Assembly (NCBI GenBank): GCA_964589775.1
Contig: CAZPUN010000041.1
Location: 1-9,477 of the forward strand
Direction of reading: 5' to 3'
Source: an uncultured archaeon
Lineage (GTDB): Archaea > Asgardarchaeota > Thorarchaeia > Thorarchaeales > CAZPUN01
DNA: 9,477 bases
The notes beneath the pieces were generated by a model. The model was given only the letters and a program-made list of their open reading frames with translations, did no database searches and was not told the DNA's origin. Numbering within the stretch: position 1 is the stretch's first letter; every line of letters starts with the position of its first letter. Positions 1,682-7,081 of the stretch are shown piece after piece. Made by a program: the position numbers and the translations under genes.

Positions 1682-1708
1682 ATATATTACTATGAAAGAA
1701 TTAATAAG
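1682..1708. promoter_or_regulatory. Back-to-back putative TATA elements for the divergent HD (-) and isochorismatase-like (+) genes
   Basis: Minus strand TAATATAT (1682-1689). Plus strand GAAAGAA-TTAATAAG (1694-1708). Confidence 0.35.
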
Positions 1709-1754
1709 TTCATTTTTTCATGCACATCTTGTTTATGAAACGCTGGTGACTAAA

Positions 1755-2399
1755 ATGTGTGGCGGTGACTTACTAGCTCTTGTTGTTATGAATCCCATTG
1801 AGGATTTTTTCGGAAAAAATTCCGTATTTGAGTTAAAGAATAAGGAGACTGCAATTTCACAAATTAAAGAACTTATAGCAAAGGTCAAAGACCATAATTC
1901 TCCTGTAGTTTATGTTGTAGATAATCATCTTCCTGAGGAAATTGAATTCTTATCGATTCCCAAACATGGTATTCGAAATACGCTCGGGCGTAAAATCATT
2001 TCTGAACTTACACCTGATGATGCAACATATATTATAGAAAAGCGACGGTATTCTGGATTTTATGAAACTGGCTTGGACCAGCTACTGAAAGACCTTGGTA
2101 TTGGCGTTTTGATAATTGCCGGTGGAATGCTTGAAACTGATGTTGTGCAGACTTGTATTGACGCTCGATTCAGAAATTATGAAATTTATCTGGTTGATAA
2201 GACATATGGTTGTATGGATCAAAATTCCAAAGATACTACCCTAGAATATCTCAAGAAATTTTATGATGTTGAACTATTGCAGATGGATGAACTTCACGAT
2301 ATCTTACATGAATATTCTATAGACCATCATGAACATGACCACGAACACAGTCATGAACATGGCCATCAACATAATCATGAACACACACATGCACATTAG
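1755..2399 (+). CDS. Isochorismatase/nicotinamidase (cysteine hydrolase) fold protein with non-canonical catalytic residues and a C-terminal His-rich tail
   Basis: ALVVMNPIEDFF, PVVYVVDNH, KHG, IIEKRRYSGFYETGLDQLLKDLG, GGMLETDVVQTCIDARFRNY. Tail HHEHDHEHSHEHGHQHNHEHTHAH. Start moved from 1692 to ATG 1755 because of SD GGTGA at 1745-1749 and a TATA-like element at 1701. Confidence 0.88.
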   Translation: MCGGDLLALVVMNPIEDFFGKNSVFELKNKETAISQIKELIAKVKDHNSPVVYVVDNHLPEEIEFLSIPKHGIRNTLGRKIISELTPDDATYIIEKRRYSGFYETGLDQLLKDLGIGVLIIAGGMLETDVVQTCIDARFRNYEIYLVDKTYGCMDQNSKDTTLEYLKKFYDVELLQMDELHDILHEYSIDHHEHDHEHSHEHGHQHNHEHTHAH

Positions 2400-4712: not shown

Positions 4713-4761
4713 ATTTCTTTCACTTTATTTCCTTTGGTCTGATTTTTTCGAGAAGAGCTAG

Positions 4762-4776
4762 AATATAAACTATTCG
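4762..4776 (-). promoter_or_regulatory. BRE/TATA promoter of the 137-aa gene
   Basis: Minus strand CGAATAG-TTTATATT, about 50 nt upstream of ATG 4712. Confidence 0.55.
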
Positions 4777-4928
4777 TATATCTCTCTGATTATTTTATAC
4801 ACTATAGCTCATTTAAGCCTATCTGCATATTCAGAAATACAAATTTATAATTAGTTTTTGTACACTATTTTACATTGTTTTTCTTATTACATGCACATAC
4901 ATTGGCAAATTTTAAAAATATTACCGAA

Positions 4929-4958
4929 AGCTATAGCTCAATATGTTGGGACATATTG
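4929..4958. promoter_or_regulatory. Operator-like palindromes upstream of the longin gene
   Basis: Perfect palindrome AGCTATAGCT (4929-4938) abuts a perfect 8-bp inverted repeat CAATATGT-tggg-ACATATTG (4939-4958). Both lie just upstream of CGAAAAAGAAAG-TTAATTAA and TATATATA elements (4959-4990). Confidence 0.5.
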
Positions 4959-5024
4959 CGAAAAAGAAAGTTAATTAAGGAGTATATATATTTATTATTT
5001 AGTAATTAAAATGAAAAAAGCATA

Positions 5025-6317
5025 TTGGGGATTGGTTGTAATTTGGTAAGAGAACTAATGATACTAAAAAAAACGGGACACACACTATTTCATTATTCTG
5101 AAGATGATTCAAAAGTGCTATCAGACCTAGTAGGGAATTTTCTCAGCGCTGTTAGTACATTTGCTGAAGAATTGGGCGAACGAAATATCCAGTCTCTTGA
5201 GTTTGAAGAAAATAAATTCGTTTATGAGGCTCTTGGAGACTTGCTATTTGTCTTCCTAATCGGGACCGACGAGCCTGAAGATATTTATCGAATTATGCTT
5301 CGCGATATTTCCAAAGAATTTATGGATCGGTATGGTGAGATTGTAAAAAGCGAAGTTGTTGATTTTGATCTATTTAATGAATTCAATGATTATGTGAAGC
5401 AGGTTCTCATGCGATATGAAGGTTTATCGCCAATTGCAAAGAAATATCCCACGATAATATTACTCTCTGAAGATATGAGTAAGCTAAAAGATGCAGTAAC
5501 AAGTGCGGAATCCGGCGATGTTGTCCATAGATTATGCATTATTTCTCAAGATGGCTATGTATTCTATTCTGATTTGAAATCATTTGAAATGGATCTTGTA
5601 TTTGAGTCTATCGAACGCATAAAGCAAGAGGGTAAGGATAAATTACCGTACCTAATAATTGAGCGTTCGATTTTGGACCCACAAACTTCACTGTTTCTTT
5701 ATACAATTACAGATATGGCGTACCTATTAGCAATTATAAATTCAAATTATGATATTGACAAAATCTTAGAATCGCTTCTACCATTGATCAACACCATACG
5801 CGATTTGAACAAGAGTAATTTTATTAAAATCACTCCTGAAATGGCTGAAGTTTCACTAGAAGACCTACAGATTTCTGTATTTGAGCCTGTTTTCTCGAGA
5901 ATTGACTTACTTCGAGAAAATCCCGCTAAGAAGCAAGAATTCAGGAATCTATTTGGCAAGATTGGATTTCAAGTCGTTGATTCCTTAACGCGGAAACTTT
6001 CGTTTAATGATTTGATCGTTCGAACAAAATTAGCTCCGAACACACTAGCTGAAATATTAAACTATCTTATACATTTTGGAGCTATTCGAATTGTTGAATT
6101 GTATCCCGTGATCAATGAAATTGATGAACGATTTGATGCATATCTGGAATTAGTTGGTATGCGTTCACAAGATTATCAAATACTTAAGGCTGCGGTACCG
6201 TTCTGTGACGGCAAGACTTCTCTGGGTGAAATTTCATTACGCATAGGCGTACCGCGAGCACAATTATATGAAATATTGAAATCTTCCGGGGACAGAGTTA
6301 AATGGATTGAAAAATAG
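5025..6317 (+). CDS. Multidomain eukaryotic-signature-like protein: N-terminal longin, central roadblock/LAMTOR-like domain, C-terminal tandem winged helices (NPRL2-CTD-like)
   Basis: aa 7-130 show a longin pattern (RELMILKKTG...SDLVGNFLSAVSTFAEELGERNIQSLEF..KFVYE..LLFVFLI + two helices). aa ~148-262 show an alpha-beta-beta-alpha-beta-beta-beta-alpha roadblock pattern (LCIISQDGYVFYS). aa ~312-430 show two wH-like repeats. The likely start is TTG 5043 (MVRELMIL). Confidence 0.75.
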   Translation: MGIGCNLVRELMILKKTGHTLFHYSEDDSKVLSDLVGNFLSAVSTFAEELGERNIQSLEFEENKFVYEALGDLLFVFLIGTDEPEDIYRIMLRDISKEFMDRYGEIVKSEVVDFDLFNEFNDYVKQVLMRYEGLSPIAKKYPTIILLSEDMSKLKDAVTSAESGDVVHRLCIISQDGYVFYSDLKSFEMDLVFESIERIKQEGKDKLPYLIIERSILDPQTSLFLYTITDMAYLLAIINSNYDIDKILESLLPLINTIRDLNKSNFIKITPEMAEVSLEDLQISVFEPVFSRIDLLRENPAKKQEFRNLFGKIGFQVVDSLTRKLSFNDLIVRTKLAPNTLAEILNYLIHFGAIRIVELYPVINEIDERFDAYLELVGMRSQDYQILKAAVPFCDGKTSLGEISLRIGVPRAQLYEILKSSGDRVKWIEK

Positions 6318-6328
6318 GAGGAATTAAG

Positions 6329-7081
6329 TTGGGAAAGATAATTACAATTCATTCGTTTCGTGGTGGAACTGGTAAATCAAACCTATCTGCAAATCTCGCT
6401 GTATGGACTGCACAACAGGGGAATCGCGTAGCCGTTATAGATACTGATGTTCAATCACCGGGTATCCATGTAATTTTCGGACTCGGACGCGAAAAAATCA
6501 GTCATACTCTAAATGATTTCCTTCGAGGTAATTGTACAATTTCTGATACTTCTGTTGATTTGACAAAGAAGCTTGGGCTCAGGCGTGGCTCTCTTTATGT
6601 AATTCCTGCTAGCTTGAATGCTAAAGAGATTACCCGTATTCTTCGTGAAGGATATGAAGTTGCAGATCTACGTAAAGGCTTTATTGATATCGTTCGCGAA
6701 AAGAAACTTGATTATCTATTCATAGACACGCATCCCGGTGTAGATCGTGAAACTTTGCTTTCAATGGCTACTACAGACTATCTATTCATTGTAATGCGAG
6801 TTGATGAACAAGACTTTTTGGGAACCGCAATAACTATTGAGATATCTAAGAAACTATCAGTTCCGCATGTTTCGCTAATTGTGAATATGGTTCCGGGCAT
6901 TTATGACTTTGAGAATGTACGTTATGAAATTGAAAGGCAGTTCGGTATCAAAGTTGCTACAATTATTCCATTATATAAACAAATGTTCGAACTTGGTAGC
7001 AGGCACCTTATGACATTAAAATATCCGAATCATGAATTCACAAAGCGTATAAATGAAATATACAAATATATTGCGCGATAG
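6329..7081 (+). CDS. MinD/ParA-family (SIMIBI) P-loop ATPase, HSFRGGTGKS variant, no membrane-targeting helix
   Basis: Deviant Walker A SFRGGTGKS, switch I VIDTD..SPG, Walker B LFIDTHPG, IVNMV. TTG start with SD GGAGG overlapping the upstream TAG stop (11-nt gap). Confidence 0.93.
   Translation: MGKIITIHSFRGGTGKSNLSANLAVWTAQQGNRVAVIDTDVQSPGIHVIFGLGREKISHTLNDFLRGNCTISDTSVDLTKKLGLRRGSLYVIPASLNAKEITRILREGYEVADLRKGFIDIVREKKLDYLFIDTHPGVDRETLLSMATTDYLFIVMRVDEQDFLGTAITIEISKKLSVPHVSLIVNMVPGIYDFENVRYEIERQFGIKVATIIPLYKQMFELGSRHLMTLKYPNHEFTKRINEIYKYIAR

Follow-up and report, generated by a model that had tools for sequence, protein, structure and literature searches.

A conserved gene pair of Thor- and Hermodarchaeota: an NPRL2/3-like longin-roadblock protein encoded beside a MinD-branch ATPase

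Introduction

When a gene for a protein of longin and roadblock folds stands directly beside a gene for a MinD-type ATPase, do the two products work together, or are they merely neighbours? The question is raised by the 9,477-nt stretch of DNA analysed here (the window), which is contig C41 (CAZPUN010000041.1, assembly GCA_964589775.1) of a 2.16-Mb genome, 96.75% complete, from an uncultured archaeon of the Thorarchaeales. An initial annotation of the window, made from its letters alone, had proposed that a longin-roadblock-winged-helix protein encoded by one open reading frame (ORF1) may regulate or scaffold the MinD/ParA-type ATPase encoded by the next (ORF2). The pairing of the two genes was found to exceed chance in Thor- and Hermodarchaeota, and we conclude that it is a real and ancient pair of an ATPase and a platform protein, which probably interact.

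Two adjacent genes on one strand

ORF1 (5025-6317) and ORF2 (6329-7081) lie on the same strand with a gap of 11 nt between them. Read directly from the sequence, ORF1 ends with the stop codon TAG at 6315-6317, and a Shine-Dalgarno-like AGGAGG motif on the forward strand (6316-6321) overlaps this stop and lies 7 nt before the TTG start of ORF2 at 6329, which is the layout that had been annotated. Both genes had been assigned TTG starts, and this stood for ORF2, whose start agrees with those of its orthologues (beginning M-G-K-I-[IV]), whereas the start of ORF1 was moved from the TTG at 5025, which opens the longest reading frame (the 430-aa gene of the initial annotation), to the TTG at 5043, because it is there that the protein (M-V-R-E-L...) aligns with orthologues that begin M-(P)-V-K-E-I-I. 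Gene 1 therefore occupies 5043-6317 on the forward strand and encodes 424 aa, and gene 2, at 6329-7081 on the same strand, encodes 250 aa. A scan of the sequence against shuffled controls found no terminator-like site in the 11-nt gap, as had been claimed; the sole such site on the plus strand (6575-6591) lies inside ORF2 and was no better than the shuffled controls.

The AT-rich intergenic region 5' of the pair (4713-5042) presumably holds its promoter. The operator-like palindrome that had been described upstream could not be upheld, as the inverted repeats of the region 4755-5001 were all imperfect and AT-rich (75-83% complementary), with no convincing operator among them. A scan for sigma-70 sites upstream gave fewer sites than the shuffles, with a model that is irrelevant to archaea.

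The gene pair recurs in Thor- and Hermodarchaeota

The relatives of the genome are labelled Thorarchaeota and Hermodarchaeota. Full-length orthologues of ORF1 were found in two families, f14 (19/19 genomes hit) and f2, and 27 of the 29 loci recovered by genome search carried an orthologue of the ATPase (55-62% identical) directly downstream on the same strand. When 47 named Thor- and Hermodarchaeota loci were fetched independently, the ATPase gene was less than 300 nt downstream and on the same strand in 41; among the remaining six it lay 304 and 1245 nt downstream in two, a contig edge intervened in three and no ATPase gene was present within 3 kb in one. Genus g13, which is without the 430-aa gene, has a 305-aa paralogue (longin plus NPRL-like tail, no roadblock) directly 5' of the ATPase. 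The pairwise distances of the two proteins over 19 loci were correlated (r = 0.93), with the longin protein diverging 1.6 times faster, and the module is near-universal in the two families with a divergence that follows taxonomy. Conservation of the pair, which the initial annotation had named as a check to make, was thus observed, and a paralogous pair (described below) is conserved too; restriction of this gene order to a handful of closely related genomes is already unlikely.

When ORF1 was searched singly against a word index, only the protein itself came back, and the orthologues came from whole-genome and profile searches. The profile search, over 1.84 billion representatives, gave only about seven full-length clusters at 50% identity for ORF1, most of its other matches having the longin domain alone in common. 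Among the orthologues, three longin genes (G323, G350 and G313) each contain one in-frame stop (TGA/TAG), and one ATPase orthologue (L025, 721-1457, minus strand) is broken into two frames by a frameshift at about 1197; assembly errors or pseudogenes are possible in all of these cases.

The upstream protein has longin, roadblock and NPRL2/3-like winged-helix domains

An AlphaFold2 model of the ORF1 protein, built on an alignment of 23 orthologues (predicted local distance difference test, pLDDT, 80), showed four domains and bore out the longin-roadblock-winged-helix architecture that had been annotated. The longin domain (residues 1-128; 5043-5426, forward strand), delimited from this model and by VIA-align, matched VAMP7 with Z 16.4 and a root-mean-square deviation (rmsd) of 2.1 Å over 119 residues and Sec22b with Z 15.7, its longin-domain matches together spanning Z 15-16.4 and rmsd 2.1-2.8 Å; in Pfam it had a weak match to Fuz_longin_1 (E 4.8e-4). 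The roadblock domain (residues 129-259; 5427-5819, forward strand), with the order helix-strand-strand-helix-strand-strand-strand-helix, matched the C-terminal domains of Rag/Gtr proteins (Z 12.1-12.4, rmsd 2.5-3.3 Å), including that of RagC/A with Z 12.4 and an rmsd of 3.0 Å over 126 residues, and the protein had no Pfam match to Robl_LC7.

The C-terminal module (5826-6314, forward strand) comprises two winged helices, at residues ~284-358 and ~359-424, arranged as in NPRL2/NPRL3. When the C-terminal 163 residues were modelled alone with AlphaFold2 (pLDDT 91.3), the top 12 Foldseek matches were all to NPRL3, NPRL2, Npr2 or Npr3, at E values of only 8e-4 to 2e-2 and a TMq, taken on the whole query, of 0.48-0.56, unrelated matches having TMq of about 0.2. 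The Pfam model HTH_NPRL3 gave 18.4 bits against a cut-off of 27.2 (E 0.002), and the NPR2 and NPR3 models did not match the protein. Over its whole length, Foldseek placed NPRL3/NPRL2 of GATOR1 at the top (E 6e-8), followed by subunits of the tri-longin Rab guanine-nucleotide exchange factors (GEFs). As modelled, the tail of the ORF1 protein is specifically NPRL2/3-like.

The likeness to NPRL2-NPRL3 of GATOR1 (Npr2-Npr3 of SEACIT in yeast) extends to the general plan of an N-terminal longin domain and C-terminal tandem winged helices, and among solved structures only NPRL2/3 and Npr2/3 fit the C-terminal arrangement well. In contrast to those proteins, ORF1 has a roadblock domain inserted between longin and tail, no DEPDC5-like partner, and as conserved neighbour a MinD-type ATPase in place of a Rag GTPase, and the sequence similarity is below the Pfam cut-offs. 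Residues 1-256 also resemble the tri-longin Rab GEFs (Mon1-Ccz1, Fuzzy-Inturned, HPS1-HPS4) in having a longin followed by a roadblock-type domain; the match to Fuzzy-Inturned (9rs9 chain A) reached Z 14.2 over 211 aligned residues, with an rmsd over both domains of about 8 Å. Unlike these GEFs, ORF1 carries two winged helices where they have a third longin-type domain.

Conservation within the ORF1 family was highest in the longin domain (mean pairwise identity 0.52) and the last winged helix. Gly12, in the beta1-beta2 loop, is invariant among the orthologues, and the residue at +2 is usually Pro and is Thr here; longins of GTPase-activating proteins (GAPs) carry their 'GP motif' in this loop (PMC12290439), and the likeness of Gly12 to it is positional only. 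With median net charges of 0 and -2, the two winged helices lack a consistently basic character, which fits contacts with proteins better than DNA binding; the longin protein as a whole is acidic.

The downstream protein is a predicted MinD-branch ATPase

ORF2 scored above the cut-offs of three Pfam models, PF10609 (64.2 bits, cut-off 27.1), PF13614 (62.4 bits) and PF01656 (59.8 bits), and its nearest solved relatives were archaeal and bacterial MinD, followed by FleN and Mrp. It is thus a P-loop protein of the MinD/ParA/Mrp type, in agreement with its annotation as a MinD-like ATPase. Against the model of archaeal MinD (TIGR01969) it gave 77.1 bits, with a cut-off of 201.75, and against that of bacterial MinD 55.3 bits, with a cut-off of 212.9. 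A type-B paralogue ATPase scored 85.6 bits to ORF2 and archaeal MinD 85.8 bits to the ORF2 profile, so type B is no closer.

The catalytic motifs were located by alignment of 23 orthologous sequences. The Walker A motif S-F-R-G-G-T-G-K-S (residues 9-17; 6353-6379, forward strand) has Arg11 in place of the signature Lys (RGGTGKS), a residue conserved in at least 90% of the sequences, and keeps the P-loop Lys16; H8, S9 and G12 to K16 are invariant. The type-B paralogue has Lys at the position of Arg11. The sensor-1/switch I segment, D-T-D followed by S-P-G (residues 38-45; 6440-6463, forward strand), reads D-T-D-V-Q-S-P-G in ORF2, with D38, D40 and P44 invariant and G45 conserved in at least 90%. 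In the Walker B motif D-Y-L-F-I-D-T-H-P-G (residues 128-137; 6710-6739, forward strand), D128, Y129, L130, D133, P136 and G137 are invariant. With K16, D38/D40, D133 and N186 of the [NT]xxx motif invariant, all four motifs of the ParA clade are intact. The motifs predict ORF2 to be an active ATPase of the MinD branch of the SIMIBI class, a protein that should dimerise as an ATP-dependent sandwich.

The ATPase is basic here (isoelectric point, pI, 9.2) and in the Hermodarchaeota orthologues (pI 9.2-9.4), and the Helarchaeota orthologues are acidic. C69, H8, H47 and H135 vary little or not at all among the sequences. The chain of ORF2 stops at the last core helix, and the C-terminal tails are not conserved among orthologues. 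The initial annotation had seen no partner activator in the window, and searches of the genome, which is 96.75% complete, found neither MinE nor ParB_N.

A second module, the wider cluster and co-folding

A second ATPase-longin module was present in the same genome on contig C28 (4544-8149, minus strand; loci L006/L041), where a TPR-like ORF is followed by genes for a 267-aa MinD-like ATPase (KGGTGKT) and a 202-aa protein of a longin and a single winged helix-turn-helix (wHTH), the last two separated by 6 nt. The order of ATPase then longin-winged-helix gene was kept at 13 of the 14 loci of relatives (own genome excluded) where the 202-aa protein has a full-length homologue. These loci belong to families f2, f10 and f11 and have ATPases 29-60% identical; at the fourteenth (L055), tblastn found no ATPase. 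That two deeply diverged modules each join an ATPase to a longin-winged-helix protein argues strongly for a functional partnership, which is probably a physical one.

In 41 of the 47 relatives, a membrane protein similar to the major facilitator superfamily, with a helix-hairpin-helix (HhH) tail, is encoded upstream of the pair and transcribed divergently, and in Thorarchaeota a short longin-plus-winged-helix paralogue lies between the membrane-protein gene and the 430-aa gene. These tandem paralogues echo the NPRL2/NPRL3 heterodimer, and the short paralogue suggests an NPRL2/NPRL3-style heterodimer that works at the membrane. In the genome studied here, the homologue of the membrane protein (527 aa, HHH_5 tail) is encoded apart from the pair, on contig C39 (51138-55367; L071), and no short paralogue was detected in this genome. 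Only the pair has thus stayed together here, which makes it the tightest link of the cluster, and with the membrane-protein gene elsewhere and the short paralogue lacking, a homodimeric platform is likely in this organism. Neither the window nor the conserved cluster contains a gene for a small GTPase. The C39 membrane-protein gene adjoins an SfsA gene, and at a Hermodarchaeota-type locus (L039) SfsA is found ~4 kb downstream of the pair.

A co-fold of the longin protein and the dimeric ATPase had also been put forward as a check, and was run with two ATPase chains, two ATP, two Mg and one longin protein, on alignments made for this analysis. The score was 0.60 (runs 0.57-0.62), compared with 0.00 for the best control; at least 95% of the contacts agreed between runs, and the pLDDT of the partner was at least 78. 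The score thus attained the mark, as do those of 58 among 80 solved complexes and of 2 among 110 mismatched pairs, but the verdict was 'weak support', since only 7 of the 80 solved complexes, together with both mismatches, reach the mark at 0.60 or below. Taken with the strong prior from synteny, this result raises the odds of direct binding modestly.

Other features of the window and the genome

Among the sequencing runs listed, three of DNA and none of RNA matched; one of them, a hydrothermal-vent metagenome that is possibly the source, contains the whole stretch. The neighbours of the pair in the window are housekeeping genes for peptidases, a reductase and an isochorismatase; the isochorismatase-family protein (1692-2399, forward strand) has a His-rich tail of about 25 residues with alternating His and acidic residues, which may bind metal. 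The pair is flanked by P0005 (4299-4712, reverse strand; 137 aa, no family) and P0003 (7142-7765, forward strand; 207 aa), the latter with a zinc-ribbon-like start (CxxC...C..H) and two predicted transmembrane helices. Both were rejected as parts of the module, as they stand beside the pair in no relative.

Elsewhere in the genome, the other ParA-clade genes were of Fe-S types, namely one Mrp/NUBPL gene and two genes with ferredoxin inserts. The Mrp/NUBPL ATPase (PF10609, 348 bits) on contig C21 (36101-39616; L074) is followed on the same strand by genes for a Ras-family GTPase of 200 aa and a Roadblock/LC7 protein of 136 aa, and a classical GTPase-roadblock pair and ATPase-longin pairs hence coexist in one genome. 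On contig C20 (15063-18206; L075), a NifX-like (Nitro_FeMo-Co) gene is followed by the two tandem ParA-clade genes with 4Fe-4S ferredoxin inserts, a layout that fits the NifX-associated ParA context of Li, Burroughs and Aravind (10.64898/2026.10.19.760177). On a Helarchaeota contig (L038, 1-12756), an orthologue of the ATPase (51% identical) follows genes for a TPR protein (518 aa) and a lysine-rich protein of 110 aa, with an MCR-alpha-like gene a few kb away.

Discussion

We consider it reasonably probable that the two genes form a conserved operon-like module in which a nucleoside triphosphatase (NTPase) switch is joined to an NPRL2/3-like platform, with direct binding of the two products as the most likely arrangement. 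Longin and roadblock folds are commonly thought of as regulators of GTPases; here they probably serve the ATPase, because they are encoded almost always directly upstream of it. The longin and roadblock domains would offer a dimerising surface for contact with the NTPase, the two winged helices would make protein-protein contacts, and the ORF1 protein would most likely bind the ATPase directly. As a dimeric longin/roadblock platform, it would read the nucleotide state of the MinD-type dimer or control it. The platform may couple the ATP-bound state of the ATPase to a target or modulate ATP turnover, in a role like that of MinE or ParB for MinD or ParA, or of MglB or NPRL2 for small GTPases, and the target would be a membrane-associated complex (positioning or assembly) as opposed to nutrient signalling. 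Of the link drawn in the initial annotation, the functional part is supported by synteny and by the paralogous module. Beyond the folds, the catalytic motifs and the gene order, we infer regulation or scaffolding, that the two proteins bind each other, which way any regulation runs and which process of the cell they serve.

Several observations weigh against this reading. The pass of the co-fold falls in the weak band, and neither alignment nor sequence properties made a membrane-targeting helix evident at the C-terminus of ORF2. In Helarchaeota the orthologues of the ATPase (50-52% identical) are preceded by TPR and 110-aa proteins and by no longin gene, and outside Thor- and Hermodarchaeota the ATPase subfamily is therefore not strictly tied to longin partners. 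One Thorarchaeota genome has the pair split over different contigs, and three distant proteins with an NPRL2/3-like tail (P0149, P0172 and P0187) have no recognisable MinD neighbour, P0149 lying ~400 nt after a P-loop gene of the NTPase_1 type. The adjacency can also be explained by co-regulation without binding, and many Asgard small GTPases could be the true clients of longin/roadblock proteins.

The initial annotation knew of no described system of this kind, which holds in part. Liu et al. (10.1101/2020.10.19.343400) reported an 'NPRL2-like' family in most Thor metagenome-assembled genomes, without a link to the ATPase, and in an October 2026 preprint (10.64898/2026.10.19.760177) Li, Burroughs and Aravind predicted ParA-wHTH modules, most of them archaeal and some with a wHTH protein fused to a profilin-longin-like domain, proposed an immune role for them, and noted cases of ParA in place of MglA beside MglB. 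The longin family and modules of ParA with longin-like wHTH proteins are thus already in preprints, and the ATPase-platform pair is a new variant of NTPase plus longin/roadblock modules. The ConB2 branch of that preprint is marked by a PG motif after sensor-1, and ORF2, compared by motif only, appears to share this motif and the type of partner.

Beside the better-known systems, the pair resembles MglA-MglB and Rag-Ragulator in that the gene for an NTPase adjoins the one for a dimerising longin/roadblock platform, and differs from them in that its NTPase is of the SIMIBI deviant-Walker-A type, with an ATP-sandwich dimer, and not a TRAFAC small GTPase, and in that the platform has two winged helices. 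In the manner of MinD-MinE, ParA-ParB, FlhG-FlhF, McdA-McdB and SegA-SegB, a MinD/ParA-clade ATPase stands beside a fast-evolving partner that would presumably control its ATP cycle or make use of it. Unlike MinE or ParB, to which it is unrelated, this partner is of the eukaryote-type, longin/roadblock/NPRL-like kind, and unlike MinD and its kin, ORF2 has an Arg for the signature Lys, no evident membrane-targeting helix at its C-terminus and a score far below the archaeal MinD cut-off.

The same parts would also suit ParA-type DNA segregation or the tethering of DNA to the membrane, with the winged helices as a DNA adaptor like SegB, ParB or ParG, the ATPase patterning on DNA and the HhH-tailed membrane protein of the relatives as the anchor. 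A two-gene layout of ATPase and wHTH is typical of partition systems, the ATPase is basic here and in Hermodarchaeota, the HhH-tailed protein is a conserved divergent neighbour and the genome holds no ParB_N that could be found; yet the winged helices of the orthologues range from neutral to acidic, in a protein that is acidic as a whole, their arrangement matches the protein-binding tail of NPRL2/3, the ATPase is nearer to MinD, FleN and Mrp than to Soj/ParA among solved structures, its Helarchaeota orthologues are acidic and no repeated centromere-like sites were seen upstream of the pair, so that we regard segregation as unlikely. An anti-mobile-element role, in which invading DNA would be intercepted and coated as Li, Burroughs and Aravind proposed for the ParA-wHTH systems, draws on the mostly archaeal modules with longin-like fusions of that preprint, on the PG motif after sensor-1 and the Arg substitution in Walker A that it gives for ConB2, ORF2 having a PG motif at this place and an Arg in its own Walker A, and on the faster evolution of the longin partner. 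Such systems are predicted to be immune and to evolve rapidly, whereas the Thor- and Hermodarchaeota module is in nearly all genomes of two families, is vertically inherited and congruent with taxonomy, unlike patchy defence genes, sits among housekeeping neighbours in the window, had only generic P-loop/HTH matches in PADLOC, none of them specific, and has no effector (nuclease, NADase or peptidase) in its conserved cluster. This near-universal, vertical and effector-free occurrence in a housekeeping context argues against immunity; moreover, it is the first (signature) Lys that Arg replaces in ORF2, with G-K-S kept, and the preprint highlights the 'second lysine', which may be another substitution. 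An immune role thus seems quite improbable to us.

A different objection is that the two proteins are co-located without being partners, in which case the longin-roadblock protein would serve a small Ras-, Rag- or Arf-like GTPase from another locus, as its GAP, GEF or scaffold, and the ATPase would be merely co-transcribed or work in parallel. Longin and roadblock proteins are known partners of small GTPases, as in MglB-MglA, Ragulator-Rag and GATOR1-RagA (PMC12290439, PMC10933270), the genes for small GTPases of Asgard archaea generally share no operon with the roadblock/longin genes of their regulators (Tran et al., PMC10933270), and this genome does encode Ras-like GTPases, among them the one paired with Roadblock on contig C21. 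That two deeply diverged paralogous modules each keep a MinD-branch ATPase beside a longin-winged-helix gene, that window and conserved cluster are devoid of a small-GTPase gene and that the ATPase co-fold scored well above its controls, albeit with weak support, all speak against this objection, to which we give little credence. Delivery of a metal or Fe-S cofactor by an ATPase like Mrp/NBP35, CooC or HypB, with ORF1 as an adaptor, would accord with PF10609, a model of the NUBPL/Mrp type, as the best Pfam match of ORF2, with the conserved Cys and His residues, and with the binding of metal at the dimer interface by SIMIBI metallochaperones; against it, ORF2 has no CxxC or CxC motif, its PF10609 score is modest at 64 bits compared with 348 bits for the real Mrp of the genome, and the conserved cluster includes no metalloenzyme genes, which leaves cofactor delivery very improbable indeed.

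An ATPase served by an NPRL2/3-like platform is the reading that we prefer. It is a more speculative and, as we judge it, unlikely step to suppose that platforms of the NPRL2/NPRL3 type first served a MinD/ParA-type ATPase at a transporter-like membrane protein and that a Rag GTPase replaced the ATPase later; if this were true, the longin protein would sense the nucleotide state of a SIMIBI ATPase or activate it, and the Thor- and Hermodarchaeota cluster would have survived as the prokaryotic equivalent of the arrangement of transporter, GATOR/Ragulator and Rag in eukaryotes. Most eukaryotic signature proteins of Asgard archaea have no known partner, because their genes seldom share operons with the GTPases that they are presumed to regulate (PMC10933270), and an NPRL2/3-like protein with a fixed genomic partner of the MinD type is an exception, which calls for caution in taking NPRL-like proteins in Asgard genomes as evidence of a proto-TORC1 nutrient pathway. 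The pair raises the question of whether longin/roadblock platforms are general partners of NTPases and not specialists for small GTPases, and offers a concrete two-protein system in which to ask what such platforms do in archaea.

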